NCBI GenBank assembly: GCA_004022145.1
Contig: RCNU01000002.1
Direction: 5' to 3' (one strand)
From: Paecilomyces variotii
Taxonomy: Eukaryota
DNA length: 64,000 bases
Made by a program: the position numbers and the translations under genes. This document shows, in pieces, positions 1 to 61,243 of the stretch; position 1 is the first letter of the stretch, and every line of letters begins with the position of its first letter. Under the pieces are notes generated by a model that was not told the DNA's origin, searched no databases, and saw only the letters and a program-made list of their open reading frames with translations.

Positions 1-1970
1 CCGTGGCCTCATCGGCAGACCAGGGAGCGGGATACTGCAAATGAACGGCCAGCCAACAGCACAGAATAACCGCGAGGCCGGCTGCGATGGGGAATTTCCA
101 GGCTTCAGGAATTTTCAGAATCCGAATCATATCAAGGAAATTGCCGACGTGTGGAATATAGACCCTCTACGAGTTCCGCACTGGGCGGAGCCGACCCATA
201 TAGAGAATATGCTGACGTACATTGACGAAGGGTCAATCGAGATGTTCTGGGTATCAGGAACGAATCCTCTCGTCAGCTTGCCAAATCTTACCATGGCACG
301 AAAATGCCTTACAAAGCCGGATCTGTTTGTAATCTGCCAGGATATTTATCTCACTGAAACTGCTCAGATCGCAGATGTGGTCCTACCTGCAGCGCAATGG
401 GGTGAGAAAACTGGCTGCTTTACGAACGCTGACCGGACAGTACATCTGTCGCACAAGGCTGTCAATCCTCCAGGAGAGGCGAGGGCTGACTTGGATATCT
501 TTCTCGATTTTGGGAGGAGAATGGACTTCAAAGATAAGGATGGCAATGACCTGCTACCTTTCAGTACACCAGAGGAGGTCTTCTGTGCCTGGAAGAAGCT
601 GTCTAAAGGTCGCCCATGCGACTACAGTGGTCTGTCATATGAAAAGCTGACAGGAGGCTCTGGCATCCAGTGGCCCTGCAACGACACCTACCCTTACGGA
701 AAAGAAAGATTATTTGACGACGCCGTCTTCTTCACTGACATTGACTATTGTGAAAGCTTTGGTCACGACCTCGAGACAGGTGCGCCGCTTTCCAAAGAAG
801 ACTACCAATCGATAAATCCAGGCGGTAGAGCGATTCTCAAATCAGCAAATTACTTTCCTGACCCAGAAGAGCCCAATGAGAACTATCCAATTCGATTGTC
901 GACGGGACGCAATGTCTACCATTTTCATACGAGAACCAAAACGGGGAGATCGAAACCGCTGCAGGAAGCTTGTCCCGAACCTACTATCCGTATTTCCAAA
1001 GACGATGCTGTCAAGTTCAATGTTCAAGATGGAGATGAGGTGGTGGTCAGATCGAGGAGGGGAGCGGTTGAGATGAGAGCCTCAGTTGGGGATATCGCTC
1101 CAGGACAAGCTTTCATTCCCTTTCACTTTGGATATTTTGATTCTACAGACGGAAAATCCAGGGCAGCGAATGAGTTGACAATAGGTCAGTTTTCCACACC
1201 AATATGATTGAGTCCTACGAAAGTCTAACATCAACGCTCCAGAACGATGGGACCCAATATCGAAGCAACCAACCTTCAAGTCGGGGGCAGTTCGCATCGA
1301 AAAGATCGAGCCAGGACAGGTTAAGATTCATGCCCGAGAGCAACACTCTGCATCTGTTCGGAAAGTCCAGACGGAAAAACCAACGGTACAATTGGTAAAG
1401 CATAAAGTGGAGAGGACACGCAGGCTTGAGCTGTGGCTCGGGACAATTTTCGAAGCCATCCAGATCCTGAAGGAGATCTGTTCTCAGCTGATACCCACGC
1501 TCATCCATGACATGGAAATCCCTGGCGGGATGAAAGTCATGGAACGCATAGCTGAGTCTATACAGGAACGGCTCGCCCCAGTCATCGATACATACAAGGA
1601 ACAAAAAGTCTTCGGTGAATCCGTATCACGCAGAGTTCGCGACAACCTGTTTCCAGCACTAGATCGCAACAGTGACCACGAGCCGTACGAAGCCCTGACT
1701 GCTCTGCAAGCTTTCTATATGTATCTCTGCCATATCGATGGCCACCTCGTTGCACTGCACCCCGCGAGCCAAGCGATGTGGGACGAGAACTTCTTCGAGG
1801 CAGTCAAATTCTCTCAACAACAAATCACGAGGATGAAGAGTTGGACTACGCAGCAAATGAAGACTAAGTCCCCGCAGAGACTGCTCGTGCCAATGGACCC
1901 TATCGACGAGACTGTCGGAAGCGTCTTTGAAGAAGATGCGCGCAAACTAGCAGACTCTTTGCGTGCGTAG
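1..1970 (+). CDS. Mo-bisPGD (DMSO reductase family) oxidoreductase, NasA/NarB/NapA-like; 5' part lies outside the window; one intron 1185-1242; C-terminal helical extension
   Basis: Frame is open from base 2 (RGLIGRPGSGILQMNGQPTAQNNRE). Motifs: GTNP, QDIYLTETAQIADVVLPAAQWGEKTGCFTNADR, GIQWP, LSTGR..HFHTRTKTGR, FIPFHFG, AANELT. Removing GTCAGT...CTAAC...CAG (1185-1242) gives the family tail WDPISKQPTFKSGAVRIEK in frame with ORF 1392-1970. Confidence 0.88.
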
Positions 1971-2856
1971 GATCATACACTAGATCCCATGCTACTTGAG
2001 TCAAAACTTGATTTTAATACACGAGGTATCAAGCTTGGACTGTGAGTTTTGATGTCCGAGCTCGAAAGAATAACCATATGGCGATGGTCTACGCCAATGA
2101 TATCCACTTTTCCCCTCCCAGGGATAATATCAGGAGAGTTCGGATGACATCCCATAGTTTTAATTACATTAGAATACCATATACCCATAAGCACGAAACC
2201 ACATCCTTGGAATGCACGTCACTAATCCTGGAAATAAAGAACATCTTCATTGGAGCTGTCGTGATCCGTGCGAGTTGCTGGCTCTTCTATCTCCGCGGAG
2301 AGAGCAGAGTTGAAACGCCCAACATCGGACGAAGGCCGCGAACCTGATACTAGAAGTAATAATTCATTTCCATAGAGAATAGGTAGGATTTGACACGAGC
2401 CGAACAGCATTGGCTATCTGGCGGGGTTAAGCTTTTGAATGCCCCAGGCGCTTCCCCACGGAACCAGATATCCGGAACCTGGGATGAGGCATAGCTTACT
2501 CAACGTCATATATTACCTCGGTGGAAATGCTAGCTAGTCATGTATATGCAGTACCACTTAGCCGTTGACGGGAGTCTAAACTTTACTATATCCAAGATTT
2601 ATGTCCGTTACGGATAAGTAGATTGTGTGCGAAACGTACGTCACCATGATTGAAGACGTGCCTCGAAATGAAAGTTGGCGATCGCATTTCGGAATTTGCA
2701 GACGTGATGAGGAAGGGGGGAGGGGGTTCTCCTGTGGGAAAGTCGAGTCCAGCTGTGCTTGGTCGAAGATGAATTTACACTCATGCTAAGATACTATCAG
2801 AAAGAATAGATTGTTTCCTAGGTCTGTCCGTTTGAGCACATTATTCTATTGATACA

Positions 2857-4296
2857 ATGATAGGTAAATCTGAAGGAGCTTCGTTGTCGTATTCCGAGGC
2901 CTTAAAAATCATTGAGGCAGAAGCATCTAAGTTATCATCTTCATCTACCAATATCGAGGAGCTCGTCCCTTTGCCATTGTCGCTCAATCGTATCTCAAGT
3001 CGCAATTATGTTAGTCCCGAGTCAACACCTAAATTCGACACATCGGCAATGGATGGATATGCACTAAACTCGGAGGTTGCAGCAACTGCGTCGCCTGAGG
3101 AGCCAGTGAGATTCTGTGTCATGGGAACGTCGGCGGCCGGTGATTCCCCTGTTGAAGTTCGCGGCGAGCCTGACGGGGATATATATCCGTGTGTGGAGAT
3201 CATGACAGGAGCTAGGTTCCCGACCTGTGTGGATCGAAGAGAATTTGACTGTTGCGTGAAAGTGGAGGATACGAGGATGGAACCTGGAGGGAAGATTATC
3301 CAAGTGCTGAAACCTGCTAGGAAAGGCATGAATCGAAGATTTGCGGGAACCGATTTCCAGCAAGGGGATAACATTATAGATGCTGGAGACTGTGTCAAGA
3401 TCAATCATCTGATGGCACTCGCGTCTATCGGCGTTGAGAAGATTGCAGTACGCAGGAAGCCACGAATAGCCGTGTTTTCAACAGGGAAGGAATTGCTCCA
3501 GAACGATGGTGCTCAGAGTGATGCACAGCGGATAATGGATATCAACGGGCCCTGTATCACCGCTAGTTTGACGGACTGGGGATGCGATGTGGAGTTCCTA
3601 GGCGTCATTGACGACAATGCCTCTGCTGTGTCTGGAAGGATCATGCAACAACTTCAGCTTCGAGAATATGATATCCTCATGACAACCGGAGGAGTATCTG
3701 CTGGCAAATTCGATTTCGTTAGGAAGGCAGTCGAAAGTATCGGTGCTAAGGTGTTGTTCCATGGAGCTGCAATTCGACCAGGACACCCTGTGTTATTTGC
3801 GACTCTACCCTCTGGACGATATGACAGTACAGGAGGCAGAGATTATCCATTGAATAAACAGACAAGCACGGCATTATTTGGATTACCGGGTAATCCTGTA
3901 GCTAGCGCTGCTTGTCTCCGTTTTCTCGTGGTCCCTTTACTTCGGCAGTTACTCTCAGAGCAACCAGAGAGACCCATGAAAGCGACTATCAGGGATGGAA
4001 ACTTACCATGGAAAGGAGAAAAGACGTGTAATATAGGAGTCGCAAGTGATATCATTACGCGACTCCCTCCTAACACAGACGTATTTCGCGCAGGACGCTT
4101 CACACTTCAGCAGAGTGATAAGTTTGAAGTTGAGATCATCCACGACCACAGCCCCGGGAAAATAAAGCCTTTTCTTGGTGCGGATTGCTGGATCCATATA
4201 CCAAGAGGACATACTGAGTTGAAAGATGGTGATGCCTTGGATGTATATCCCATCTGCAAGCAGGAACATGGCCTCGCTGCTTTACTCAGGAGTTGA
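2857..4296 (+). CDS. moeA: Molybdopterin molybdotransferase, stand-alone MoeA / gephyrin E-domain type, intronless
   Basis: 479-aa ORF with SAMDGYA, IMTGA, STGKEL, TTGGVSAGKFDFV, IRPGHP and FGLPGNPVAS motifs; no MogA/G-domain. Confidence 0.92.
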   Translation: MIGKSEGASLSYSEALKIIEAEASKLSSSSTNIEELVPLPLSLNRISSRNYVSPESTPKFDTSAMDGYALNSEVAATASPEEPVRFCVMGTSAAGDSPVEVRGEPDGDIYPCVEIMTGARFPTCVDRREFDCCVKVEDTRMEPGGKIIQVLKPARKGMNRRFAGTDFQQGDNIIDAGDCVKINHLMALASIGVEKIAVRRKPRIAVFSTGKELLQNDGAQSDAQRIMDINGPCITASLTDWGCDVEFLGVIDDNASAVSGRIMQQLQLREYDILMTTGGVSAGKFDFVRKAVESIGAKVLFHGAAIRPGHPVLFATLPSGRYDSTGGRDYPLNKQTSTALFGLPGNPVASAACLRFLVVPLLRQLLSEQPERPMKATIRDGNLPWKGEKTCNIGVASDIITRLPPNTDVFRAGRFTLQQSDKFEVEIIHDHSPGKIKPFLGADCWIHIPRGHTELKDGDALDVYPICKQEHGLAALLRS

Positions 4297-4983
4297 CATT
4301 GTCAAGCGGGCATAAGTTTCGAAGCTCTTCCATTCCTCCTTATTGTTGGCATTAAATAGCCATACCTCATGGTCGGGTCGAAGCATCTTCCCTTTCAACT
4401 CTTTCACAACGAAACTTGGCCCGCATTTTCCTTGGAGCACGTTCTGCTGCAATCTCTGAAGCGCACCAGGGCTCCAGACAGCCAACAGCGGCTCACAATA
4501 ACCAGCCGAATTCCGGAAACAAGTCACTGGCTCTTCGAACTCGTGCAGTAATTGCTGCAGAGGAGAAATAGTGAGTAATGGATAGTCGCAGGCCACTATT
4601 AGCCAGGAGCTCTCGAGGTCATGGTGATGAGCAGCCAGCAGCCCTGCAGCTGGGCCAATATCGACTAATTTATGAGTCACAGCTCCATCTTGGGAACCAG
4701 AATCTTCGTCATATAGCACCCTAACGGTGTATTGGGTCTTTCCAGGAAGCAATAATGTATCGCTAGAAATTAATTCGGCATATGGATCCTCCCGAAGTAA
4801 TTGCTCTAGGGCCGCCTTGTCCTTCAATGACATGTAGAGAACATCTTGTTCAGATGAAGCTTCACCGAGAAGGCTGAGAAGACGCCTATACAAAAGTTCT
4901 CCGTCCGGAAGACGCAGTAGATGCTTTGGAAACCCCATTCGTGATGAGTTCCCCCCAGCCAGGAGAAGGGGCCTCGCTCTCAT
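4282..4983 (-). CDS. mobA: Molybdenum cofactor guanylyltransferase MobA-like, intronless
   Basis: LLLAGGNSSRMGFPK nucleotidyltransferase signature, GPAAGL, ACDYPLL, EPLLAVWS, FNAN. ATG at 4983 chosen because it sits just before the motif (ORF extends to 5046). Confidence 0.88.
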   Translation of the reverse strand: MRARPLLLAGGNSSRMGFPKHLLRLPDGELLYRRLLSLLGEASSEQDVLYMSLKDKAALEQLLREDPYAELISSDTLLLPGKTQYTVRVLYDEDSGSQDGAVTHKLVDIGPAAGLLAAHHHDLESSWLIVACDYPLLTISPLQQLLHEFEEPVTCFRNSAGYCEPLLAVWSPGALQRLQQNVLQGKCGPSFVVKELKGKMLRPDHEVWLFNANNKEEWKSFETYARLTMSTPE

Positions 4984-5370: not shown

Positions 5371-7545
5371 CTACGCCTTTGCCGCGGCCTTCTCGATCTT
5401 CCTTCTCTTGCTACGCAGCTTCTGAGCCTCCGCGTCCTTCTTCTTGTTGGAGTAGAGCATCTTATCCAGAAGCTTGCGCTTCTTCCGGCTCATCATCATC
5501 TTCTGTCTCTCCAGCTCCTCCTCTTCCTTGCGCTTCTTGGCTGCATGCTTCTTTGACTGGGCAGATTGCTTCTTGCCCTTATCCGCACCGCTGCCTGCGG
5601 TGTAAGGAAGACCAGCAGCCTCGGCCTCAAGTTCCTTCTGGTGCTGGGTACGAGCGGCCTCTTCCTCATCTTCCGACTCAGACGCGGCCTCCTCCTCGAA
5701 TCCGTCGAATTCTTCATCTTCCTCATCACTCTCACTGTCACTCTCATCTTCGTCCGAATTTGCGAGTTCGATATCCATGCCGCCATCGACGGACTCATCG
5801 TCCTCGTCATCTTCTTCAGACTCCTCCACGGCTTTGGAAGATTGTTTCTTCTTCTCCTTGGGGGCATCCTCCATTTCCTCGTCGCTCTTGTCTTCCTCCT
5901 CATCCTCTTCCTCGGCAGACATCTCGGCTTCGTCTTCTTCCTCCTGCTCAGCAAGGCTGGCACGAGGATCGTAGGCACCCTTGCTCGGCTTCACCCAGGG
6001 GCTTAGGTGGGGTGGAAGAGTAGCACCAGGTGCGTAGAGATCAGGACGAAGCAGTTTTTCTTCGTTGATACAGTCCCAAACCCACTGGGGCTGGATGTAC
6101 GTCCTTCCTGGGACACGCATTCCAGGTCTGATCTTCTGAACAGCTCCATCCTTCTTATCGTCAGGGATAGAAGGGAGAGATGACTCAGGAAGAGGCGGCC
6201 GGTCGACGATCTGGTGAGTGATCCTCGGGTCGGACTCGTCCGTCGTGAAGGCACCGTCACCTAGGACTGGATCCCATCCGATACGCTTGCAGCCGAACGC
6301 ACGCAGGATGAACTCAAGTGGGCCTCGAGGAGCCTCTCTAGAGATGAAAAAAGTGAAAGGCGCGAAAAGGGAACCAGCTTCGTTGCCACTTAGCCCTGGT
6401 TGAGGAAGCGTGTCGGCTTCCGGTGCTGCGGGCTCGAACTTATCGATCGCGTCTTCGTTCGCTTCCTCCGCCTCGACCACCTGCTCCTCGGGTTCCTCGT
6501 CCAGCGCAGCAGTCTTGATCATACTGTCCACCTTCTCCTGGATCTCACGCGAGACTTCCTTGTCTGCATGGCCATTGGCCTGGGAGCCTTTGGCTTCAAT
6601 CGCCTTGAGAGCACTGACCTGCTTGCCCTCCAGGGAGAATGCCGCCAGCTCTGCACCATTTTCATCACTGCGAGTGTCGAACTTCGGCGGATACACAAGA
6701 CCAATTGATGAGTAGAGTCTGAAGTTGACAAAGCCGAGTAGAGTGGTGTAGAACTGAACGAAGGTGGCCATTATCCGGTAGTCGACATCTCCGCTGACTT
6801 TCTGGACAAAGCGGTAGGGGACAAGCCACATGATATCCTGGCCCTGGATAGTCGCTTGGTAGTAGATACCCTTGATGGACAGGAACGACTTTCGAAGCGA
6901 ATTGGTGGTGATAAGGTAGTGCTGGAACTCATGGCACAAGCGCTGACACAGTGCGATCGTCTTTGGGGGCACATTGGCGTCAGACGGAAGGTTCGCGAAA
7001 AGGAACAGAAGCGAAAGAGCATCATCGAGATCTCTTAGCGCATCGATGAAGGTCGGGTATCGCTCCTTGATGATGTGGTCGAGAGTGAGCTTGGGGGCGT
7101 TGTTCTTTTCCAAACGAGCGGCATCGCCAACTTCTCCTCGACCCAGGGACCGTGCGATCTTCTTGGAGAGCGCCTTCTGATCGCGAAACTTTCTGAGCAG
7201 TGGCTCATGAAGAAGATACTGGATATCTTTCGTGTAGTAGAAAGTAGTATTCGGAGTCGCGGTCTTGGACGCCTTCTTCTTGTTACGAGGCTCACGGGGA
7301 TAGATACCTGAAGATCTCGATATGTGAGCATTCTATTTATCCGCAGGTATGGCGAGGAAAAATTTGCATACCCTTGAAGATGCATAGCCTTCGGAAATCA
7401 GGCAGGGAAATCTGAAGCTTGCGCACTGCCTGCGTTCTGGTGATGTAGTTTTTCGCCTGACCAGACGTGCCTGTGAAAAATTAGCAATTACCCTCATGGA
7501 GCGCATGATGGCCTGGAACGCACCCTTCTTCTTGATCTTCGCCAT
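5371..7545 (-). CDS. nop7: Pescadillo / Nop7 ribosome biogenesis protein (introns ~7523-7471 and ~7371-7308)
   Basis: Spliced N-terminus [66 protein letters not shown] region ([26 protein letters not shown]); acidic tract and basic C-terminus. Confidence 0.96.
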
Positions 7546-31805: not shown

Positions 31806-32890
31806 TTATATCTTCGTATCCTCATCATCATAGACAGTTTCTGTTTTATGCTTCATCTGGTCACCTTCCTTAGAAGGCCACACAGCACAATCCATGTCGT
31901 CAGCCCAAAGTGGCCTTCGTTTCACTCGGAAGTCGAAAACCTCCGGTCGCCTGTAATGGCCGCTCAAGTCTATGAACACTTTAACCTGAGCCAAGTCTGC
32001 TAAATTTAGTTCAGCGCTCACAAGCTTCTCGACAGCTCCCTCATGAGGTCCAGCAAGAAAACTGCAGAAGGGGTGAATCTTATGGGGTTGTTAGTAGCAG
32101 GCAAACTAAGTATTGCTTCTCGGACACTTACGATAGCGGACCAACCTCCCCCAGCTTTAACGCTGTCCTGCTCACCAAGATTCTCCTTCATCCAATTCAA
32201 GCATGAATCGTCCACATAATTAGAGGAGCAAATAACAAAAGTCTGGCCCGTTAGGGCATGACTTTTCATCAGGGCCTCAATTTGCGCGTTGGCAGAACTC
32301 TCGAAGCCTGCCATTGTGTTCAAAGCGGGCCACGCGCCAACATGGATTTCTTCGCCATCGAGTGTGAGTGCTTGTCGCGCAAGGGGCATCGTATTTTCCC
32401 AGCAGCATAAGCCGCCGATCTTGAAGTCGCCAAGCGAATCATAAGTTCGCAAAGTGTGTCCTCCGCCTTGGGCCCAGACCATGCGCTCCACGTATGTCGG
32501 TTGTAATTTGCGATGTACTCCCTTGATATCGCCTTTAGCATCGATGTATACTTGGCTGTTGAAAAGCGTGTATCCATTAGGAACGCGCTCAGAGATGCCC
32601 AGACAGATAGATATCTCCGCTTCACGGCAAGCTGCCTGCACCTCGTGGAGGTCGTCTTTCACAACCACACTCTGCTCTCCATAGGCAACGAGCGCACCAA
32701 CCTGTTTTATCGGCGGATAGCACTCGATAAAGTAAGGGTAGCCTGGGACGAATGTCTCTGGAAACGCGAGAAGTTTGATATCTTGCGCTTTGGCGTACTT
32801 TATGAGCTGAACTACCTTGGTGAGGGTAGCAGCCTTATCCATAAACACCGGAGCGGCGTGGACAGCTGCAGCTTGGACTTTGCGTGCCAT
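31806..32890 (-). CDS. Nitrilase (CN-hydrolase), 1 intron near 32130-32080
   Basis: Catalytic triad motifs FPETFVPGYP, HRKLQPTYVER and GLCCWEN; C-terminal D..GHYRRPEVF. Confidence 0.92.
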
Positions 32891-33676
32891 GTTCACTGCG
32901 CAGCTGAGAAACGAAGAGAGTTATTCAATTAAGTAGCTACCTAGTTTTGGATCTTGTTAGAAAGAACGTGGAAAATGTGGGAATCAAATAGGGAAGGGTA
33001 CTTGAACCCCCACTTTCACTGAAGCACCTAATAGGTATAACCCGCCGGCACAGCTTGTCGTACAAATGTATATTTTTGGCACTAGGGGCCTAGTAGAGTG
33101 CGATCTCGAGCTGCTGAAGATGCTTGATTGAAGGAGACTTAACTAGGAGCTGGAGCTGGAGGCTTCGGCGAGCTACCTACCTAGGTAATCCATGTGTAAC
33201 TGGCTAACCCAATGCGGAAGATGAAGGGAACCCCCGGGGCCGTCCCGACGTTACTTATTAATCGCGATTTGACAGCATCTAGCTAACTAATATTGAAACA
33301 GGAAGCTCCATTTAAGATCTACATTCATCACGACGCCGTAGAAAGGAATCTTGACCAATGCCTGAGGAAACATCCATATGGGAAAAAATGCATAGCGGCA
33401 GAGGAAAGGGTAATGATGCAGAGATCTTTTTGGCATCTAGCTTCATTCTACGGAAGTGTCGTCTAGGATGATGGATGAAGTATGGATACTGCTGTCTTGG
33501 AAGGGCGGACTATTTTTGGAGTCGGAGATAGGAAAGATACTCTATCATTACCAAACCATCTGGCCCGCTCTCTTTGCCACCCTTTGCAAAGCTCGAAAGC
33601 GTTCTGAGTCGCGGCCATGTGAAAGCAGACAAGATACGGACTTTCAAGTTTTACTACTGTATAGCCATCACTCAAT

Positions 33677-35514
33677 TCATTTCCTTCCCATAGCACGCTC
33701 AATCTCCGTTAATGCAGCGATCACCTTTTCGTCATAGTGTCTTCGCCCAATGATTTGCAGACTGACTGGCGCATCCTTGTACTTTTCGGGCGTGTACATA
33801 TCGTAAACGAATTGATCTTCTGCGTTTTTCGGTTTGTAATCCAAGTCCTTCTTGTCTTTCTCAGGATCGACCGTTGTGACAGGGAATACGGCGCCGGGAT
33901 AATCCAATAGATTCCAGTTGGAGGTGTATCCCCAATAACGCGATTGTTCATGCGGGGTTGCTGCGCCAAACGAAGGTGGACATAGGATCACGTCGACCTC
34001 CTTTCCATCTGCCTTGCCGGTGTTAGTCCAGTGTTTGGCATATGCTTCTCGATAAGCATCTCTCTCAGCGCAGAGCTATGTAGTCCTCGATTAGCTTACT
34101 GCGTTTATGCACAGGGGATGTATCATGACGTACCTTCCATAGCCCGTGTTGATCCAGCTTCTTCACCGATGGTTGTTCATGAATGATGAATTTCGTGAGC
34201 GGAAGGATTGGTTCACCACCCTCCTCTAGAAGACCCAAGACTTCCTCTCCACCGTCGGGCCAGTACAGCGCTGCTGTAATCTCCCAGCCCCTTCGATGAT
34301 TCAATGATTCGCAGTCCCAGTCAACTACCTCCATTCCTGCAGCCTTGCATGCCTCCGAGACCTCCTTGAGGGCTCGGATCATAGGAGGGTGAGGCATCAC
34401 GACACCATCCCACCATTGTACTGCGATCTTAAGCGGTCTGGTGAATTTATATGGCGTCCACTCCTTGGCTGTCAAAGACGGGTCCAGACGCCAGGGCTTC
34501 ACAGACAGAGCGACTTTCATAAACAGCTCGAGTGCCTCGCGGTCTGTTGTCATGGGTCCCAGCGTCGAGAAAATTGTCTCTTTTCCGATCATGTGGGTTC
34601 GTTGACCACCAGACGGTACACGCTTAACGGTTGGCCAACGGGACTATTAGCATTATGCATAAATCATCTCCTTCAGATTAACATACTTGAACCCATAGAT
34701 ACCAGTATGCGCAGCTGGACAGCGAATACTCCCCCCGATATCTCCGCCAACGCCCTATAATATTCAGCCACAGCTCGGTAGAAAGATAGTATTATACATA
34801 CTAAGACACTTCCACGCATCCCAATCAAAGCCGCCTCGCCTCCACTGCTTCCACCGCACGTCAAATCTCGGTTATAAGGGTTAACCGTCCGCCCGTATAT
34901 ATTGCTGCTGGTCTCTAAGTGCATGATCGTCTGTGGCTGAGTGGTGCGAGCAAAGAAGACACAACCAGCATCCCAGAGGGTATCATAGAGTAATATGGAA
35001 CCTTGTGGCTTGCCGATCCACGCAACATAAGAGGCATTAGCGGTTCCATTTGGTGACTTGGTGCCGTGATGTTCTTTCGTAGAGATGGGTAATCCATGGA
35101 GTGGCCCGACAGGCTCTGGCAAGGAGTCAAGATAGCGAGCTCGTTCGATCGCCTCGTCCCAAAGCAACTCTGTAAGGCAGTTCGTCTAGGGAAGTCAGAA
35201 AACCAAGCCCTCGAATTCTCGCAGTCATAAGAAATACTTACAGCGAAGTGTGCCAGTGCTGCCCGCCGCAGGAAAGCTCTCGTGACCTCCTCAGCGGAAA
35301 GTTCTCTACTATGCAGTTTGGCTAGAAGTTCCGTGACCGAATACTTTTCTGTGATCTCTATCTCTTTGGAAGTTAGGATTGCTTTTGGTAGCTCCTGGGA
35401 GTTGAGAGGCAAGGTGTCCGGTAAGCCCTGAAGAGGGGGCTCGACTCGAGCCACCGACTCATCCCGTTTCGTCCTCGCGATAGAGGCTTTCGCTTCCCAG
35501 GGTTGGATTGTCAT
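33677..35514 (-). CDS. Amidase-signature family amidase (AmdS/acetamidase-like), about 4 introns
   Basis: GPLHGLPISTKE (catalytic Lys), GGSSGGEAAL, GGDIGGSIRCPAA, GFKPT, YTSNWNLLDYPGAVFP. Confidence 0.93.
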
Positions 35515-37519
35515 TTCTATCAAAGCAATTCGAGCTTTCTCTCTGTGTCCTGATTCTGCAAAAGTACTGTTGGGAGAGTCACGCAGCTATTCGTCTTTTC
35601 GCCTACACCAAACCATCTTCCAGAGAGGACAGAAAGAACGCCTAATATATCCCCCGCAGATATCCTTACTCCTGGCACTAAGTTGGTGTTATCGCGTGGA
35701 AAGCTTATCGGTCATACCGACAAGCGGGGTAATCAGCTGGTGTTCCGATAGGAATGTAAGAGAGACTCTGGAGTCTGATCACCGGACAGCAGCGTAACTG
35801 CTCAAACGCGAATTCCTGACCAAGATTTAATGTATCTACTATGCAAGTGACAGCTCACGAAGGAACTATTAAAAGCTTCAACCTCTACACTGAAGAACTA
35901 AACGTATTATGGATTCTGTCTTGCTATGGCGAACTGACTAGACTGAGATTCCTTATAGTCAATTAATCCAGCTAACAGGAAACAAAAATAGATACAGATA
36001 AAAGCCAAGATCACCATATTCTCTCTGACTGGGCAGGAAGCATCACTTCAGCATATATCCAGTTATTCAGCTCTCCTCCTACCTAGTCCATCGCCTTCCA
36101 GTCCAGGAAGTCTGGTGTCTTCATTATCTGCTCTATCAGCGCGCACGGCATGCCTTCTGGTTCTCCTCTTCCTCCTCCTCTAAGTCCTCCTATATCTTTA
36201 CTCACTCTATACCTTTTATTTTAATTAGTATTTCTCTTTTATTAAAGGGTTTCTTCGAAATCTTATCCGGAGTCGTCAGCTTAATAATCTCCAGAATCAA
36301 CTAGGTCATGTTGTCCATGAAGAAATACCGTCGAAGGAAGGAAATGAAGATAGACGCCAGAGAACCTCAGTTAACTCGCTGAAGAGAATGAGCAACGGAC
36401 CCAAGCAGGACCTTAGAGGCATTTTAGGAACGGGCTTCCGCCCAGGATGAACGAAACACTGTGCGACTGTCGAGAACTCTTTCGAGTTCGACTTCCAGAC
36501 CAACAAGGAGTTGAAGCTAGGAATATGAATATTGAGGGGAGATATGATTGCAACAACCCCGGGTCGATGAACAACCTTTGGAAGGCGATGAGACTAAGTA
36601 TGTCACGAGTACGTTAATGAGCGGCAGTACAACAACGGTAGCTAAGTATACAGATTCACAACGCAAACACTTCGTTCGAAGGCCATTGTGGAATCTTCAG
36701 CATTGAAGTTCTTTGTTTCATTTATACTTGTTTTTATTCATTTATCCTGAGCGTCAACCATAACTAGAATCTTGCGAAGCTTACATAAGAGCCGCCTATC
36801 CGAGAGGGGATTTTGGAACACTTTGCGGGGGCCAGCTCAGAAAGCCGGAGTTTGCCGGAGTAGCTTGGTAACTCGAAGATTTATAATGACGATTGCTTCT
36901 ATTAGGAATCCTAACGCTGCACAGGTGATTTGTGATGATGATCAGCCTTCTGGGTGGGCATTTGGTCGGTTTGTCATGGAATCTTTGGTCGACGGGGGAA
37001 TAATTCACCCGCAGCAAAGATCTTCGATCAGATTGTTTTCGCTTTTGAAACGTTCGACATTACCAGCTGTCTGTCACGCTACCAGTGCTGGGGTCATAAC
37101 GTCAAGACATCAGCCTGGGGGGAGTCAAATAGTAAGAGATTGCGATGCGCCCTTTTATTATTGCTAATGTGCATTATTCTCGAAGCTTCATCATCTGAAA
37201 CTCTCCGAAAGCAAATGTCCGCACGGAGGAACTTTGTGGTAAATGGAAGAGCTCGGGCACATTTATCAGCAAAGCCCCGCGAGCCAAATTAGTGTCCGTT
37301 GAGCTAGATTGCATGTTGTTACTTTATTTTGCGGTGCGGGATGCTCCCCAAGGTGATGATATGACGCCGGATTGGTAACGCTGCCGTCACTACAGTCCCA
37401 CCATGTGCCCCGCGCACGCATATAAAGCCCTTCGATGCCGACAGGGCCCATTTCAACTGGAAAAAAGTGAATTGATTCTGTTGAAATTATTATACTGTCA
37501 GTGAGCAGATACTACTACA

Positions 37520-53573: not shown

Positions 53574-56500
53574 TTACAGCAACATTTTGATACCCTTTTC
53601 GTTGCCGACCTCCTTCGCTGCAAGTAAAGCTGTTCCAAGCTTTCCGCCCTCCGCATCGATATCCGCGCCCCATTCCAGCAGAACATTTGTACAACACGTA
53701 TAGCATGACCAGGGGCAAAGATTAAATTTTCCTATCGACGCTAGACAGAGTTCTGCCCAATTCTGCGCCATGACTACCATAAGCGGTGTGCCAACGCACT
53801 CATTCATAGCATTGACATTCGCACCGCATGATAGAAGGGACTCTGCCGCCATCGCATAGCCACGGAAAGCGGCTGCGTGAAGTGCTGTTCCATATTCACC
53901 TCCCTCAAGGTCGACATCTGCGCCCCAAGAGACAAGTCTCTTAACCCCTTCATCGTCATCGCTCTCTGCGGCGATATACAATAGCGTTTTCCCATTTTTG
54001 GGGTCCCTTGTGTCGGGGGACACACCTTGACCAAGGAAATAGGTGACCATGTCCTCAGATCTGGAAGGAAAACAATGTGGACTTAGACGGGAGCCAAGGG
54101 CAAGGCGGTCTGCGGGCTCCCACTTTTGTGAGTCAAGGATTAGCCGTACGCACGAAACCTGTCTGCGTCGGATGGCTCGTCCCAGTGCATACTCGAGGAC
54201 ATCAGAACTATGTCCAGCATGTAGTAGTAGCAAATTGACAATTTCCTCGTATCCTTTCTCGGAAGCAATAGCTAAAGGTTGTTTGTCGTCAACATTGTCG
54301 AAGAAAAGTGGAACATTGAAGCTCAGCAGTTCTTTGATCGTGGGTATTGAAACTTCATGGTGTCCCATAGCAGCAAGTATGGACTCTTTGATGTCTTCTT
54401 CAGTAGGTATGTACTTTGTACCCACATAATGAACCCTATCGACGTCAAGACTCCGCGAGGCCGATATTAATGCTGTGGAATAGTGTGAAGGATTTTTAAA
54501 CAGATTGTATCCATGATGCTCAAGTTTCTTGAAAAGATCAGTAGTACCTCTTCGCGCAATGTACGGAAAGATATCCTCGATCTCGCCGTACAGATCATTA
54601 CCGACTCCAGTATCAAGCAGGATCCTCAATACCTCCATCCAACTGTGAGAATCAGAGATGCCCTGAAATTTCTTGATTTTACTAATGACCACTCTCAAAA
54701 GATCATTTCCATCGTGATCGCGAACATTCACGTCGGCTCCATTCCGTAGCAAAGCCTCGATAACGGAATTCCTTCCGTTCTCAACAGCCAGTAGGAGGCT
54801 CTTCGGCCAGTTCTCAACAGTGAAGTACTTTAGGATATGCGCAACAAAACCTTGATGTCCTTCTGAACAGGCGAAGGTGAATGCACCGTCAAAATGCTCG
54901 GGGTTGAAGCCAGCGCGAATCCCTTCTTGGACCAGCATTGTTGTAATCTCTGTTGTATTGCGAGTGAGGCTTGTCTTCAACACGGCGGTAGACGTGCCCT
55001 GTATATATCCCCATGGACCATGCTGGAATAGCCGTCTTGCAATAGATACATGCCCCTGGAGACAAGCTGCAAACAGTGGGATGATATGATCACTGGGGAA
55101 GCCATAATAAACCATGCCGCGTAATTGACCTTTGAGGTAGACGTTTGCCCCGTTATCAAGAAGGATAGAAACGATAGATTCTTGTCCGTGAAAGGCCGCG
55201 AGATGTAGAGGGGTTGAAATAAAGGTTGTTTTAACAAAATATGAACTGTCTTTTGAATATGACTTCTCAAGGTTGTCATCAATTGGAATATCGCAGTTGC
55301 CGTCCACGTTGGCTCCTTGTCGCAACATAAAGGTCACCAGGTGTTGGTGACCGTTACCTGCGGCAAGACTCAGCGCAGTTCCAGTCCCCTTATCTACATC
55401 ATCGACCCCTATCCCGTGACGGAGAAGCAGCTTGACTATGTCGATATAACCTTTTGCAGAGGCAGCTTGCAGCGCATTTCCGACCCCTTTCCCAGGCGCT
55501 CTCACATTGGCACCCTTATCAAGCAAGAACTGAACGATGTCAATATTTCCCGCATCGCAGGCAACTTGAAGGGCATTGCCGTTTTCGCCGCCTGTGTCTT
55601 CGATGTTTGCATTGCGGTCAATTAGGAACCTCACGGTTTCAAGGTGTCCTCGCTCAGAGAAAACCTGAAGGCATGACCCATAGTGAGACCCATAAATACC
55701 TGTCCAGTGCTTATCGATTTGAGCGCCTCGAGATAGTAGCACTTCTGCCACATCGAAGTGACCCCCCTCCAAGGCTGCTTGCAGTGGAGTCCCGAGTATC
55801 GCACGTTTAGCATTGACGTCGGCTCCATGGTCTAAGAGACTTTCCACTACAGCGCGGTGTCCCCAGAAAGCAGCAATCTGCAAGGCGGTATATGCGCCCC
55901 AGGCATCTATACGTGCCCCTTTTGCCAATAATTTATTTACCAAGGTAACGTTGCCTCGTCGTGCGGCGACCTCTAGCGGACCTAGGTCTGTCGGAATGTC
56001 GAGGTGTCCACTCCCAGCCCTTGATCCAGGGAGCGCCTTTTTCTTGGGCCGACAAGCCTTGCTCGGGAGGTCACTAATATTATCACGCCGCATGGAATAC
56101 GACAGATATTTGAAACGATTTGAATCTTTATGTGGGTTCAGCTTGGCTCCGGCCGCGAGGAGCAGATCGACGATTTCCTGGTGGCCGGCATACACGGCAG
56201 CTTGCAGTGCATCCTGATAACGCCCGGACACACCACCCCGCTCACTGTGCAATGAAGCACCATGCTCGATCAACAGACGAACAGCCTGCTCATGTCCGTT
56301 AAAAGAAGCAGCTTGGAGCGTGTTACCAAAATGGCCACCAAAGCCGTCAACAGATGCGTTGTGAGCCAGCAGCAAGAGCATGATGTCCACATTCCCCAAA
56401 GAGGCAGCCGCCTGGAGTGCGTCGCCCAGCTCCTTATCCTTGACGTTGGGATCCAGACCCTTTTCGAGTAGGTATTTTGTGATATCGACATTGTTGGCTA

Positions 56501-59500
56501 TAGCAGCAGCCCGCAAAGGAAAGCCGAATCGTCCACGACTGTCAAGGTTGGCGCCGGCATCGACGACAGCTTGGAGGAGGGTGAGTTTGCCACTGGCAAT
56601 AGCTGCGGCCACGGCATTCCCAAAATACCCTTTCTCTTCGTTGATATCGCCGCAGACTTGTAGTAATCGCTTCACTTGTCTCGCCCTGCCACCAAAGAGA
56701 GCAACTTGGAAAGGGTCGGGCCGGATGTTTGGTTCGAAACTGGAGGCTTGATCACACAAAAGGTGCTCCACCATCTCAACGTTCCCTTTAAAACTGGCAA
56801 TCTCTAGCGCATCATTAAACTGTTCTCGTGTGACGGGCTTGAATCCAGCATCAATCAAAATTTGAGCGACATGGTTATGACCGTTTGCTAGAGCGGCTTG
56901 GAGAGGACTTGAGTATTCACCCTTGTCGCCGGGAGAAAAGGACGCGCCGGAATCGAGCAAGACTTTCACAACTTCTGCATGGCCAGCAAAAGAAGCCGCT
57001 TGGAGTGCATTTCCATATTGTGATCCCAATGCATTTACAGCAGCCCCCAGACCTATCAGTTTCCGAACGACGTCTGCGTGGCCCCAGCGAGCAGCTAGGT
57101 AAAGACCGGAAGTGTTATGTTTATTTCTTTGGTTCACGTCAAGTGTCTCAATGACGCTAGAACAGTGAAGAACCTCAATTATACCAAAGCAACATGCTGT
57201 GAATAGGGCAGACGGCGGGGAGCTGAAGCATGCTTCCAACTTTCTCTCGAGCGACTTACTCCATCTGGGACCCTCTTCAATTGGTCGTTCGTCGAGAATC
57301 TCCAGCCAATCTTCGAAATGTTCCTCTTTGGTAAAAAACCTGGTGAGTGATGTCTTGATTGCTGCTCTTTGTGGTGAACCACTGAGCTGCTCCACATGAG
57401 CGGGCCAGTTCTGAGTAGCGTAGTTCAGAAAGTCATCATCCTCCCATCCGCCAGCGAGGTATGTGCCTAAGCATCTCTCAACCATCATTGCATTGGCATC
57501 TTGAATGGAGTAGCAATCCAAATTCTCAAGGAATCTGCACAGACCGGTCAGCTCTACCTGTCGTGTCTCCAGCTCATTGAAAGGACATACTCTCGGACAG
57601 TCAAGTGTACCAAGCGGAAAGTGTCTGCTTCGTTGTCTATTACAACTAGGTTGCAGCAGTAGTCAACGATTGATCTCGGTGATACTCTGGATGATGACTT
57701 AGATGGCCAGCTGACGGCAGCCACCAGTTCACAAATCGAGAGCTTTCTTCCTGCATATAGTAACCATTGGAGACATTGCACCGCCACCTGCCGGGAACTT
57801 TCGCTCATGGACTGGATTCGTCTGTGGATGGCTTCGTATGACGTGCTCAGGGCCGAAGGAAGAGAACCCAGAGCTTGACGAATACTGTCAATGTCCTTGA
57901 TGCGGTCGGTATCCCCGATGTTTTCGATCTGGAGAGCAACCCAGAGAAACCTACAGTCATTAACATAAAACATTCATAAGATATGATGTTTCTCTCCCTG
58001 AAACTCACATTCCTTGTGCGCCTGTCACGAGTACATTGGTTATATCCTTCTCAAGCTGCTGCAGTGCCGCGGTCGTCTCGTCGTGCATAGTAGACCACCT
58101 CCTCATGAAGTTCTCAACCTGCCTCTTAACAAACCGCTTCAGATCTTTCTCATTCACTTGAGAAGTGACTTCTAAAACTTCCCCTTTACGGAAGTAGACA
58201 GCAAGATCTTCTTCATGCCGACTCGACACGAAAATTTTGACAACATCACGACACCTTTGTCGGATGTCCTCAAGGGCATTGAGAATGACTCCCCGCTGCT
58301 GGGAGCCACACTCATCCAATGCATCAATGATGATTGTGAATGGAGTTAGCCTGCCATGTTCACAAATGAGATCGACGCTTTCTTCCACCGTTAGCGGGGC
58401 CGGCCTTTCTCCGACATGGCTTGCTTCTTCTTGTCGCTTTTGATACATTTCCACGGATGGACGTCGTAAACTGGTTCCCTTTCTGCATAGAGATATCTGT
58501 TTGACTAGTGATCGGAGTATATCTCGGGGGTCGGTGCGCTCGGGCTCTGCAGGGTTCCGAGAACAAAAGAAGTGAGCTATCGGCGCTGGTTGGGATGTAG
58601 TATCGCCGCTTTCCCGATTGAGGCTTTGTATCACGATCGCGCTTTATCCAGTTAACCATAAAGATAATCACAGTAGAACTTTTTGGTATAGCAAACTAAC
58701 GCAAGTTTTGTCTTTCCGCAGCCCGCTACACATATTGTTAGCTCAGAATGACCTGGTCTGTATCTATCGGCTTTAAGTAATACTTACGAATCCCGTTCAA
58801 CCAAAATGTTTCGGAACTACTAGAATCTCTCCAACTCTTGAAGCATGGGCTTTCTAGCAGCCACTCACCCGAGTCAGGCAATAACGATGTACATGCCTCT
58901 CTGTAGTGTTGCTGCACGGGGACCGTGGAAAGCCACCGTAGAATCTCGTCTCTCTCATTCTCTAGTTTAATTTAGTAACGGTAGCCCAGTCCTGCTAGAG
59001 AAAGTACCTTTGAGAGCATCACGAAGCTCAGATACCTGATCAGACATCCTAAGTAGAGGCTGTTCAAGATCCAGTAGTGCACCCTTCAGTCGTGGCTGGA
59101 TATTGTCAATGCCATCAGTGGCCGTGCTCACTGCCAGAAGCATTGTCGAAACCTTGCCCTGAATATCATCCATGTCTAACACAGATTCAGCGAATTGAGC
59201 CAGATTTGTTCCCGGATTGATATTCTTACTCTCGCTATCCACAAGCCCCTTCAGATTGAACACCTTCTGCTCCGCAGCCTGCATTTCCCTAACCGATTCT
59301 TGAAGGGACTGCGTTGATATCAAGTTGAGTACACGCTCTAATCACACATCGTTAACACCCCCTGTGAACTCATCAGTTTTCTGAGTTAACCTACTCATGC
59401 GCGACCCATCATGATGCTTCTTAGCCTTGCAAAGAAACCCCAGAATAATCGAATACAGCTTGACCATCTCCTTTTCCAAGACCATCCTGGCATCAGTCGC

Positions 59501-59953
59501 TCCACCACGCCGGAGAAACAGGGCCTCAACAATGCTGCAGCGGGCTATCAATTCCGTTGCCTTCTCTAACCCCTCAACAATAGCGCCAAAGGCCTCAAAA
59601 GCCGAAAAGCTCAATCGCAGCAAGAAACGCACCCCTGCCCACGGAAGCGCGGCGTGAACAGGGTCATATTGGACAGCGACATCAATAACTTCCATGAACT
59701 TTTTGACATACGAGGCGATCTTGGTACATAGGTCGCGGATGACGAGCTGTTTCCCGCCAACACTAATGGTTGTCCAAGTATCCCGCTTGCAGCGGTCGCG
59801 CTGCCTTTCCAGTGCTGACAGGATATCCTGGAGGATTCCTTTTGCATCTGGAGTGGAAGTGGATGATATCTTGAAGATCTGCTGGTCTCTTGGGGGGAGT
59901 GACGATAGGGCGCGAGACCAGAGTGATGGCGTTGGAGTTAAGGAGGTTGCCAT
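53574..59953 (-). CDS. Fungal NLR-like STAND protein: N-terminal helical domain, NACHT NTPase and long ankyrin array (about 7 introns)
   Basis: N-terminus LWSRAL...DVAVQYDPVHAALPWAGVRFLL; Walker A WLNGIPGCGKT split by introns; Walker B IIIDALDEC; KIFVSSR; AQGM|FLWVALQ; many GxYGNALQAASxxGHxxxVxxLLxxGA ankyrin repeats in a 1315-aa exon. Confidence 0.9.
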
Positions 59954-61243
59954 AATGGGAGGCCGCGTTCTTCGATCGAAATCTGTAGCTTGTCCAGCTT
60001 CGTGATATATACTCTCGACTCATGTTATTGTGAAAAATGCCAACGGATGTCACTCCAGTCAATATAAGCTGACAGGAGCGGGGCAGATCGTCGCCGCAGC
60101 CTGATGTCTCTTTGCGCCAGTACCTAAGAGTGAGATTCTTATTCGCTCAGGTCAGTGCCCCTGCAACAAACGAGGCTGAGACGGCCATCAAATGTGTTAG
60201 CGGTTATCGAGGACCAATTTGTCCACAATAGAAAAGTACCAAGACAACCGCGTCCAACGCTCGAAGCCTTTTTGGTGTGTTGTGATCCCCCTCATGGAGA
60301 GAAATAGGCTGCTTGAACCATGTAACGCACAACAGATCGTTCCCAGTTCTACAAATCCTATTACACCTACTTCCCAGCATTCTCCTTGAGGACAATAACT
60401 TCTTCTGCTGAAACCGCGGCAGCATTGGAGAAGCAGATTGTAATCGACCGCGAACTAATTCAGGGCATACCAACTGTCTCAGCACTTTCCCTGGTCCGCT
60501 ATATTGCTGCAGGACTCTGTTCGGGTACGCAACACACTTTTCGCTGGAAGAAAAGCATCTGACAAGGTTGAACCAGCGTACTGCCAGCATAAGCGCACCG
60601 AGTTGCTTCGTTAAGGACATTGCGATACCTTTCTGGCACCTTACCCAGGGCCAACACGACTTATCAAGGAGCTCCTATACCGTCTGAAGATACCTCATCT
60701 GATTACTGAGGACGATGGAGACAGAAATGGGACTGTTTGTCGGCGCGAGCAATACTGTGGCGCGATTTACCAAAATACTGTTTTTGTCATTCATCATCTC
60801 ACGGCTGTTCAAAGTAACCATCACTCAACAGAAAAGGTTATCTCTATCGGCATAACGAACTATTTATCTCCCTTTGAGTTGGCTATCACGCTTTGGGATT
60901 GCCTTCGATCATTGGAAGTTCCAGAAACTGTCCCATAAGGTCCACCATAAGTGATATCGTCCTAGGACGACGCTCTGAAATAACGTCGTTTCGGCGCAAC
61001 TTTTTGTTATTCGCCTCAACCCACCTTTCCATTTTAGAAGGGACGCTGAAGTGCTAAGGCCGCATTTACAAGCTGCAGTTCTGATGAGCAAGTCGAGCAC
61101 TTCGTGCGTACAGGATTTCTGGGGATTCCAGACTTGGCTTCGAGCATGACCTGGAGCGATAAGACGAGAAGAGCCATCATGGCATTCACCAGTGACTCGG
61201 CTTGGATCACTTCGATAAATATCATTTCCAAATTTACTATGTT

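Follow-up and report, generated by a model that had tools for sequence, protein, structure and literature searches.

A gene cluster of bacterial ancestry in the fungus Paecilomyces variotii: a bis-MGD-family oxidoreductase with stand-alone moeA and mobA

[quoted passage not shown] The window starts inside the oxidoreductase gene, at about residue 352 of 987. Pfam domains and reading frames bear out the three genes named in an earlier interpretation made from the letters of the DNA (hereafter the sequence-only reading), and moeA and mobA are each a single open reading frame (ORF), intronless as that reading had them; the gene order is also as described, where 'followed directly' stands for a spacer of 886 nt between the oxidoreductase stop (1970) and the moeA start. 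On the minus strand, mobA has its ATG at 4983 and its stop at 4282-4284. The features of the locus are as follows:

1..1184 (frame 2-1184), plus strand: oxidoreductase, part in the penultimate exon, about residues 352-746 of 987 (Pfam; alignment to the cluster representative P0001)
1185..1242, plus strand: spliceosomal intron of 58 nt, GTCAGT...CTAAC...AG (sequence; RNA contigs of runs X7 and X11)
1243..1970, plus strand: last exon of the oxidoreductase, in which the C-terminal extension follows the final part of the Molydop_binding domain; TAG stop at 1968-1970; matches P0001
1383..1967, plus strand: C-terminal domain resembling the YciF/ferritin-like helical bundle, the putative fused partner (profile, predicted structure, PDB fold match)
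1971..2198, plus strand: 3' untranslated region up to the polyadenylation site (spliced X11 contig ending at 2198, then A10)
2857..4296, plus strand: stand-alone MoeA (molybdopterin molybdotransferase), 479 residues, intronless (Pfam, NCBIfam, PDB matches, tree, RNA contigs)
4282..4983, minus strand: MobA-type molybdenum cofactor guanylyltransferase, 233 residues, intronless (Pfam, fold, motifs, RNA contigs)

The oxidoreductase fragment in the window matches the Pfam families Molybdopterin (PF00384, 2.4e-23, the end of the domain) and Molydop_binding (PF01568, 9.4e-23); the frame at 1..1184 comprises most of the Molydop_binding domain and carries the nitrate-reductase-type Arg in 'GQPTAQNNREAG'. 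The N-terminal part upstream of the window is supplied by P0001, a 987-residue cluster representative with 100% identity over the 395-residue query. P0001 and its homologues also contain PF04879, and P0001 aligns over its full core with solved members of the dimethyl sulfoxide (DMSO) reductase superfamily. The N-terminal iron-sulfur (Fe-S) motif, which lies upstream of the window and was read in P0001 and homologues only, comprises CVLCSNGC followed by VNKGRLGPKG (family pattern CxLCSNGC...NxGRL-G-PKG), with three Cys residues and a Gly at the site of the fourth. In the molybdenum-ligand segment, NTRLC(171)TAT, Cys171 is followed by Thr and not by Met, and R375 aligns with the active-site Arg of NapA from D. 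desulfuricans, so that the protein combines the Cys ligand and the Arg of the Nap and Nas enzymes. The ligands expected in the sequence-only reading are thereby present as to the molybdenum-ligand Cys and the first three Fe-S Cys residues, and absent as to the fourth.

These motifs are widely conserved among the alignment rows, which were matched by patterns. The Cys motif occurs in 20/21 fungal and 41/46 bacterial rows, the Gly at the fourth-Cys site in 21/21 and 39/46 (the other seven bacterial rows being unmatched by the pattern) as well as in a Staphylococcus relative, and the NTRLCT motif in 20/21 and 46/46, respectively; a Cys occupies the fourth site in five of six outgroups of the type carrying a twin-arginine translocation (Tat) signal. 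Cys557, 94% conserved, was rejected as a relocated fourth Fe-S ligand, because Tat-type relatives with the canonical fourth Cys have it as well. Cys601 of P0001 (about 748-750 of the window), 96% conserved, belongs to an insert peculiar to the family, 'DYCESFGHD', that the Tat-type relatives lack, and is a candidate substitute Fe-S ligand or redox-active Cys.

Comparison with solved and curated enzymes highlights both shared architecture and clear departures. The oxidoreductase preserves the bis-MGD fold of D. desulfuricans NapA (PDB codes 2NAP/2JIM; residues 36-766 aligned, 3.6e-110), with the Cys ligand to molybdenum and the active-site Arg in a 'GQP...R..G' segment; unlike NapA, the fungal family shows no Tat signal, is predicted to be cytoplasmic, carries Gly at the fourth Cys and Thr in place of Met, and displays an extra ferritin-like C-terminal domain. 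No RR motif of a Tat signal was found at the P0001 N-terminus, and the bacterial relatives align from residues 5-9 onward, whereas more distant, Tat-type relatives display RR(A/G/D)F, the canonical fourth Cys, and Cys-Met. With NasA/NasC/NarB the protein shares a cytoplasmic single-subunit catalytic protein of similar core length and the same Arg motif, NasC being the second-best NCBIfam model; it differs in the three-Cys motif and in the gene context, since nitrite reductase and nitrate-transporter genes are missing alongside it in 79 bacterial loci and a small helical partner is found instead. The best PDB match is FdhF of the hydrogen-dependent CO2 reductase (7qv7, 8.5e-115), and Fdh-alpha is the best NCBIfam model; nevertheless, the protein lacks the catalytic His after (Se)Cys and the Arg of 'LRGQNNVQG' that mark FdhF/FdhH, the alignment to FdhF placing Cys-Thr and Asn-GQPTAQ ('MNGQPT') at those positions, and a formate dehydrogenase is unlikely because of these two losses. 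AioA, also of the DMSO-reductase family, binds a [3Fe-4S] cluster through three Cys residues, offers no protein ligand to molybdenum, and works with a Rieske subunit; it is the nearest precedent for CxxCxxxC...Gly, but only a distant relative (7e-19), and a [3Fe-4S] cluster in the fungal family is a candidate.

All NCBIfam scores of P0001 fall below the respective cut-offs, including Fdh-alpha (501; cut-off 666), NasC (422; 1100), NasA (368; 1000), and NapA (340; 904, and 322; 931), and two bacterial members of the family score similarly, none at a cut-off. The missing Fdh His and Arg, the alignment of the NapA Arg with R375, and the lack of any NCBIfam model at its cut-off together place the oxidoreductase in an uncharacterized cytoplasmic family within the Nap/Nas/Fdh branch of the DMSO-reductase superfamily, and not with NapA or NasA. 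The NasA/NapA-like identity given in the sequence-only reading does not survive this comparison. The prokaryotic type of the enzyme, on the other hand, is supported, the core being 53-64% identical in all 80 of the 80 best bacterial loci and the fungi forming one clade inside the bacterial family.

Beyond the dinucleotide-binding domain the fungal proteins extend for about 200 residues, a region with no Pfam match that the sequence-only reading passed over and that profile searches and a fold model identify as a putative ferritin-like partner domain. The bacterial genes occur in two lengths, encoding about 765-830 or about 945-970 residues. A profile of the fungal extension matches 29/29 usable bacterial long-form extensions (E 2e-8 to 1.5e-29) and 32/38 small ORFs of about 152 residues that start within a few bases of the short-form stop codon (E 8e-7 to 4e-19). 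Since the profile matches both forms, the enzyme is read as a two-part system, fused in the fungi and in part of the bacteria; by these profile matches, the C-terminal extension appears to be a fused partner protein, encoded in many bacteria by a separate small downstream gene.

The AlphaFold model of the extension, built from a 58-row alignment, reaches a predicted local distance difference test score (pLDDT) of 81.8, with values above 90 in the helices; in the exon-2 fragment the helices start at residue 47. YciF (2gs4) is the top-ranked fold in the PDB, with a template-modeling score (TM) of 0.83 by target and a root-mean-square deviation of 2.6 Å, at a Foldseek E of only 5e-3, and the model suggests that the extension resembles a YciF/ferritin-like four-helix domain. 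Against Pfam, the bacterial partner gives sub-threshold scores to DUF2383 (17.2; cut-off 30.8) and DUF892 (14.9; 23.7), and the fungal domain gives no match; neither DUF1641 (ForE-like) nor any other Pfam family reached threshold for the partner, and no conserved His/Glu metal ligands were found across the 58-row partner alignment. The partner may serve as a redox partner, an assembly factor, or a membrane tether. The ForCE-type formate dehydrogenases (YjgC/YrhE) have a small helical subunit encoded next door, and the present family resembles them in pairing a cytoplasmic FdhF-like molybdenum enzyme with a small all-helical protein directly downstream, 8rqz 'YjgC' being among the PDB matches; the two systems differ in that the partner shows no sequence or fold match to the ForCE subunit, is YciF/ferritin-like by its model, and is fused in fungi and many bacteria.

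The moeA product comprises the three domains typical of MoeA proteins in Pfam, MoeA_N (1.5e-30), MoCF_biosynth (2.3e-27), and MoeA_C (1.2e-06), and matches a 479-residue P. variotii protein end to end at 97%. Its residues 14-465 align with 5-400 of the 401 positions of the MoeA profile PRK10680 (232 bits; cut-off 440). The solved MoeA proteins of Pyrococcus and E. coli and Cnx1E match at 1e-36 to 2e-32; the bit scores are 130 for Pyrococcus, 119 for E. coli, 116 for Cnx1E, and 97 for gephyrin, compared with 200 and 89 for the MoeAs of two bacterial loci described below, L050 and L077, respectively. The usual fungal molybdenum insertase is a fused G+E protein, and the fungal Cnx pathway makes molybdenum-molybdopterin (Mo-MPT).

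The mobA product matches the Pfam family NTP_transf_3 (3.7e-19) and, end to end at 97%, a 233-residue P. variotii protein. Its AlphaFold model (pLDDT 88.8) has solved MobA structures as its nine best PDB matches, with E of 2e-10 and TM of 0.79-0.81 by target, except Aquifex 2e8b (3.7e-08 and 0.71). The alignment preserves the G-loop LAGGxSSRMG, CDYP, and a C-terminal FNxN(T/N)xxEW; in 27 fungal MobAs little or no variation is seen in the Met of RMG, Lys20, CDYP, or the N211/N213 columns, and 27/27 retain the G-loop, the CD.P motif, and the C-terminal N.N motif. An N-terminal 'LAGG' is said to mark the use by MobA of guanosine triphosphate as opposed to cytidine triphosphate, and in E. coli MobA is established to add guanosine monophosphate, giving bis-MGD. 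The two window proteins resemble E. coli MobA and MoeA in the MobA fold (TM 0.81 by target), in the LAGGxxxRMG, CD.P, and N.N motifs, and in the three MoeA Pfam domains, and differ from them in being encoded in a eukaryote beside a presumed client enzyme and in a MobA that scores below every NCBIfam cut-off.

The locus is transcribed. In two RNA runs from separate studies, the transcriptome X7 and the food metatranscriptome X11, contigs connect position 1184 exactly with 1243, and the X11 contig ends at 2198 with a run of A (A10); given exact joins in two libraries and poly(A), the 58-nt intron is real and the gene gives a spliced, polyadenylated mRNA. The intron at 1185-1242, taken in the sequence-only reading as a sign of partial domestication, is thereby confirmed together with expression of the oxidoreductase. 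RNA contigs cover moeA and mobA too. The converging coding regions of moeA (plus strand) and mobA (minus strand) overlap by 15 nt (4282-4296), including both stops, and RNA contigs enter this overlap from either side. Two further results were not counted as evidence, including (i) a 19-kb unspliced contig over the whole locus in run X8, a food-fermentation metatranscriptome, with many indels in the spacer, which looks like DNA carry-over from a related strain, and (ii) the lack of contigs over the spacer (2211-2766) in X7, X9, and X11.

The cluster is also conserved. All named proteins among the top 120 homologues of comparable or larger size come from ascomycetes, one of them from the taphrinomycete Saitoella; identity is 63-77%, and many are annotated 'periplasmic nitrate reductase'. 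Fungal linkage was read from locus tags and shared contigs in the homologue tables, not from fungal contig sequences. Helicocarpus griseus shows consecutive tags for MoeA (AJ79_03241), MobA (03242), and the oxidoreductase (03243), and tags are adjacent or one apart in Onygenales sp. PD_40, Talaromyces atroroseus, Penicillium ucsense, Paecilomyces lecythidis, and Dothideomycetidae sp. 11243; in a Monosporascus gene model (P0086) the oxidoreductase is fused with MoeA. Shared contigs, recognized by equal longest-contig sizes, connect MoeA with the oxidoreductase 17 times and with MobA 16 times, and the oxidoreductase with MobA six times, ten of these contigs being only 2.4-13 kb long and each carrying two of the three genes. 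One counter-example, Penicillium sp. IBT 35674x, has two tags 290 apart on one chromosome. A scan of metagenome contigs with MobA yielded three loci (one of 1982 nt, two distant) and was of no use for fungal linkage. By the tags and the shared short contigs, linkage extends to all three genes across Eurotiomycetes and to gene pairs among the three in Sordariomycetes and in Dothideomycetes, so that the clustering proves to be conserved.

A scan of one genome per prokaryotic species disclosed 503 bacterial relatives of the oxidoreductase, of which the best 80, the basis of all counts out of 80 given here, have cores 53-64% identical to the fungal protein and are distributed among Bacteroidota, Pseudomonadota, Actinomycetota, Cyanobacteriota, Acidobacteriota, Chloroflexota, Nitrospirota, and others. 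A search of cluster representatives added more distant bacterial relatives, including the Staphylococcus protein that shares the Gly and proteins with Tat signals. In 79 clustered bacterial loci the partner gene stands at +1 in 27; after it, the commonest neighbor is a membrane protein of the HPP family (PF04982), present by profile in 22/79 loci; of the 72 loci that offer sufficient sequence, 15 have it directly downstream in the same orientation. An HPP protein acts in nitrite transport in cyanobacteria and chloroplasts, according to the statement in PMC7438415 citing Maeda et al. 2014. Smaller groups of neighbors comprise TDT/TehA-type transporters (five loci), ClC channels (four), aromatic-acid-type transporters of the major facilitator superfamily (five), and Zn-dependent dehydrogenases (five). 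The HPP and anion-transporter neighbors therefore offer a loose pointer to a small inorganic anion, as substrate or product.

Cofactor genes are rare beside the bacterial enzyme. With profiles of the fungal proteins, moeA was found within 10 kb in 2/80 loci and a mobA-like ORF in 4/80; single-sequence tblastn, of lower sensitivity, gave 2/80 for MoeA and 0/80 for MobA. Two loci stand out: L077, from an Acidobacteriota metagenome-assembled genome (MAG), has oxidoreductase, partner, MoeA, and MobA in a row, and L050 (3011-13350), from a groundwater MAG labeled Deltaproteobacteria, encodes MoeB-like/rhodanese, MobA-like, MoaE, MoeA, a MOT1-type transporter, MoaA, a long-form oxidoreductase, and HPP. 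The MOT1-type molybdate transporter of L050 belongs to PF16983, whose known members come mainly from plants, algae, and fungi. In Mesorhizobium composti (L033, 8079-9948), genes for a DyP-type peroxidase and an encapsulin (Linocin_M18) shell lie directly upstream of a long-form oxidoreductase. In a Pyrinomonadaceae MAG (L053, 13-3594) the genes directly upstream of the oxidoreductase encode a molybdenum subunit of the xanthine dehydrogenase family, XdhC, and a MobA/MocA-like nucleotidyltransferase; this transferase may serve the xanthine-dehydrogenase-type enzyme by making the cytidine form of the cofactor, rather than the oxidoreductase.

All three fungal proteins form single clades beside or inside bacterial sequences. 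In the oxidoreductase tree (mixture model, full-length proteins, 38 rows) the fungal proteins are monophyletic (support 100), with the taphrinomycete Saitoella as first branch, and join four bacterial long-form proteins, L070, L039, L050, and L053, in a clade with support 99. A transfer from fungus to fungus is not claimed: an LG+G4 tree put the window-like protein with Sordariomycetes and Dothideomycetes (96), and the mixture model left its position in Pezizomycotina unresolved. The fungal proteins again form one clade (100) in the 51-row MoeA tree, where they nest (99) within the MoeAs from the phylum to which L050 belongs; scored against the window protein, MoeAs of that phylum reach at most 214 bits (201 genomes), those of Pseudomonadota 151.5 (121), and those of Actinomycetota 142.9 (121). 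The oxidoreductase itself occurs in only one of the 201 sampled genomes of that phylum. The top score of the fungal MobA profile there is 98 bits, with 19/201 genomes at E <= 1e-6; in Pseudomonadota it is 45.8 bits, with 10/121 genomes. Fungal MobA is monophyletic (95) and sister (92) to a bacterial MobA group that is often the C-terminal half of fusion proteins of 345-380 residues, and the mobA-like genes beside the bacterial oxidoreductase stand elsewhere in the MobA tree, not nearest to fungal mobA.

The three trees and the bacterial identity argue that all three genes descend from bacteria, and each seems, by its tree, to have entered fungi once. It is plausible that an L050-like organism passed on the oxidoreductase and moeA together; as to the mobA donor, the data lean against the sampled neighbors of the bacterial enzyme. 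A transfer of all three genes en bloc is possible. The horizontally acquired, self-contained module of the sequence-only reading is accordingly upheld in its bacterial ancestry and not in its acquisition as a single module, in view of moeA in 2/80 loci, mobA-like ORFs in 4/80, and neighboring mobA genes that are not the nearest.

Since the MobA motifs and the MobA fold are kept and the neighboring enzyme is the only obvious client, the cluster is read as an enzyme with cofactor tailoring, and a functional bis-MGD enzyme with its own tailoring genes is probable. The data establish which genes are present, their homology, their conserved linkage and bacterial ancestry, and the splicing and transcription of the oxidoreductase; that bis-MGD is made, what the enzyme acts on, where its electrons come from, and what the ferritin-like domain does are inferred. 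The fungal Cnx pathway would supply molybdopterin or Mo-MPT, which MoeA and MobA of the cluster would convert to bis-MGD; in the cytosol, a small oxyanion would then be reduced by the holo-enzyme, the conversion of nitrate to nitrite ranking first among individual reactions, with electrons entering via the Fe-S cluster from a donor encoded outside the gene cluster. Nitrate is the best single guess because of the Arg motif and the HPP neighbors, but as the physiological substrate it is proposed only tentatively, at clearly less than an even chance, because of the missing Met, the three-Cys site, the lack of nitrogen-assimilation neighbors, and the lack of a curated family. The nitrate-type reductase and the hypoxic nitrate reduction of the sequence-only reading are likewise inferred. 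A wider proposal, that ascomycetes make bis-MGD with a dedicated MoeA/MobA pair of bacterial descent for a never-characterized enzyme family spread across soil bacteria of many phyla, cytoplasmic, with a three-Cys Fe-S site, a ferritin-like subunit fused or encoded alongside, and a reaction maybe distinct from those of Nap, Nas, and Fdh, stands evenly balanced in our judgment.

Several observations weigh against a functional enzyme with its own tailoring genes. The fourth Fe-S Cys is missing, so that the four-Cys [4Fe-4S] motif CxxCxxxC...C is incomplete, and all three proteins fall short of NCBIfam cut-offs: to the oxidoreductase and MoeA scores given above are added those of MobA, 69.5 (cut-off 354), 58.8 (164), and 39.9 (152), with MocA at only 21.8, and a single weak sequence match of MobA in the PDB. 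The fungal partner domain has lost the 'LLRDLHDL' motif conserved in bacteria. No electron donor (ferredoxin, flavoprotein), nitrite reductase, or NarK-type transporter is conserved beside the gene in the 79 bacterial loci, and no electron donor, nitrite reductase, or NarK-type transporter was found in the fungal window. Five actinobacterial rows of the 46 bacterial ones (L029, L036, L062, L063, and L079) lack all three N-terminal Fe-S Cys residues, and more distant relatives (P0371, P0380, and P0378) lack the molybdenum-ligand Cys, P0378 keeping a partner-like C-terminal extension; given these losses, parts of the family may not be redox enzymes, and the members concerned may be non-catalytic paralogues. 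The RNA contigs attest to presence, and neither to level nor to condition. The trees are quick searches, with rows that are best matches from only three phyla and with the E-domains of gephyrin, Cnx1, and CnxE left out. Finally, in M. smegmatis the deletion of two unassigned molybdopterin oxidoreductases left nitrate reduction unchanged, according to PMC7816997; the two proteins, MSMEG_2237 and MSMEG_6816, might belong to this oxidoreductase family.

Other explanations of the cluster differ widely in likelihood. High protein identity to bacterial proteins could indicate bacterial contamination or a mis-assembly, with the locus not being fungal DNA at all; this is effectively refuted because the transcript is spliced by removal of a spliceosomal intron and polyadenylated, and it is further opposed by the contiguity with Pescadillo, PIG-U, and other fungal genes, by a guanine-plus-cytosine (GC) content of 0.47-0.50 like that of the rest of the window, and by homologues with the same linkage in many named ascomycete assemblies. 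It is very unlikely that the three genes are evolutionary leftovers or encode moonlighting proteins and that no bis-MGD is made in the fungus: the marked divergence of MobA from bacterial MobAs, the incomplete Fe-S site, and the loss from the fungal partner domain of bacterially conserved motifs would fit such decay, but the ORFs are intact, the three genes are linked across Eurotiomycetes and in pairs in other classes, the oxidoreductase keeps 63-77% identity among fungal classes, the catalytic motifs are invariant or nearly so in 27 fungal MobAs, and the transcript is processed.

A genuine NasA/NapA-type nitrate reductase, whose three genes arrived together as one bacterial operon, is less remote but still unlikely. 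The nitrate-reductase-type Arg and Cys ligand, the presence of D. desulfuricans NapA among the best solved relatives (3.6e-110), the occurrence of all three genes in L050 and L077, with L050 among the four nearest bacterial relatives, and the nesting of fungal MoeA among MoeAs of the phylum of L050 are all in keeping with it. The protein nevertheless lacks a Tat signal, has Gly at the fourth Cys and Thr for Met after the ligand Cys, and scores about a third of the cut-offs of the Nap and Nas models in NCBIfam; moeA and mobA-like ORFs are as scarce in the bacterial loci as stated above, the mobA-like genes found there are not the closest to fungal mobA, and only 1/201 sampled genomes of the phylum of L050 contains the enzyme. 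A functional bis-MGD enzyme with a substrate other than nitrate (chlorate, selenate, tellurite, an N- or S-oxide, or nitrite or arsenite to be oxidized) and with the ferritin-like domain as redox or assembly partner is a more serious contender, although doubtful on the whole. A family distinct from all curated ones, a three-Cys Fe-S motif with a parallel in the [3Fe-4S] cluster of AioA, TDT/TehA-type and ClC anion transporters nearby, the lack of nitrogen-assimilation genes nearby, and the spread of the family among aerobic soil bacteria favor such a substrate, whereas the Arg motif is common to Nap and Nas enzymes, the commonest neighbor after the partner is HPP, from a family linked to nitrite transport, and formate dehydrogenase activity is unlikely without the Fdh His and Arg.

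The remaining window has a fungal setting, as indicated by the next gene (5371-7332, minus strand), a homologue of eukaryotic Pescadillo (2.8e-75); the rest comprises ordinary fungal genes, PIG-U among them, and the GC content of the locus, 0.47-0.50, equals that of the rest of the window. A large NLR-like gene at 53574-60019 (minus strand) combines NACHT_N and NPHP3_N-type parts at its N-terminus with an extended array of ankyrin repeats and resembles the usual fungal NLR. A nitrilase-family (CN_hydrolase) ORF and a split amidase ORF, close to each other at 32018-35586 (minus strand), have the look of ordinary nitrogen scavenging and show no tie to the cluster.

In the literature, Higgins et al. 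2018 report 'napA' in 75/712 fungal genomes and call its role 'intriguing' (PMC6161760); the paper treats the gene as a periplasmic nitrate reductase marker, and mobA, moeA, molybd-, and cofactor do not occur in its main text. This 'fungal napA' is probably the same gene family as the cluster oxidoreductase. A 2025 survey of MoeA evolution describes fungal MoeA as kept in fused form or lost (PMC11733289), and the portion covered of Peng et al. 2018 (PMC6147048) mentions no eukaryotic member of the DMSO-reductase family. Neither a fungal mobA/moeA cluster nor the present enzyme family was found described in the main texts of open-access papers.

The gene being neither periplasmic nor of a curated Nap or Nas family, it provides no evidence for dissimilatory nitrate reduction by fungi, and the annotation 'fungal napA', used as a denitrification marker, is corrected. 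For bacteria, the analysis defines a widespread two-part enzyme comprising a molybdenum protein and a ferritin-like partner, often beside an HPP-family membrane protein, and the fungal fusion links the two parts functionally. The field generally assigns bis-MGD and the DMSO-reductase family to prokaryotes and assumes plain Mo-MPT for the molybdoenzymes of eukaryotes. Judging by the cluster, some fungi may produce a variant of the molybdenum cofactor that is commonly regarded as exclusive to prokaryotes. Specialists in this cofactor would be surprised by a bis-MGD module in a eukaryote, and with a bis-MGD enzyme joined to its own mobA and moeA in a conserved and expressed fungal cluster, the prokaryote-only rule can be put directly to the test.

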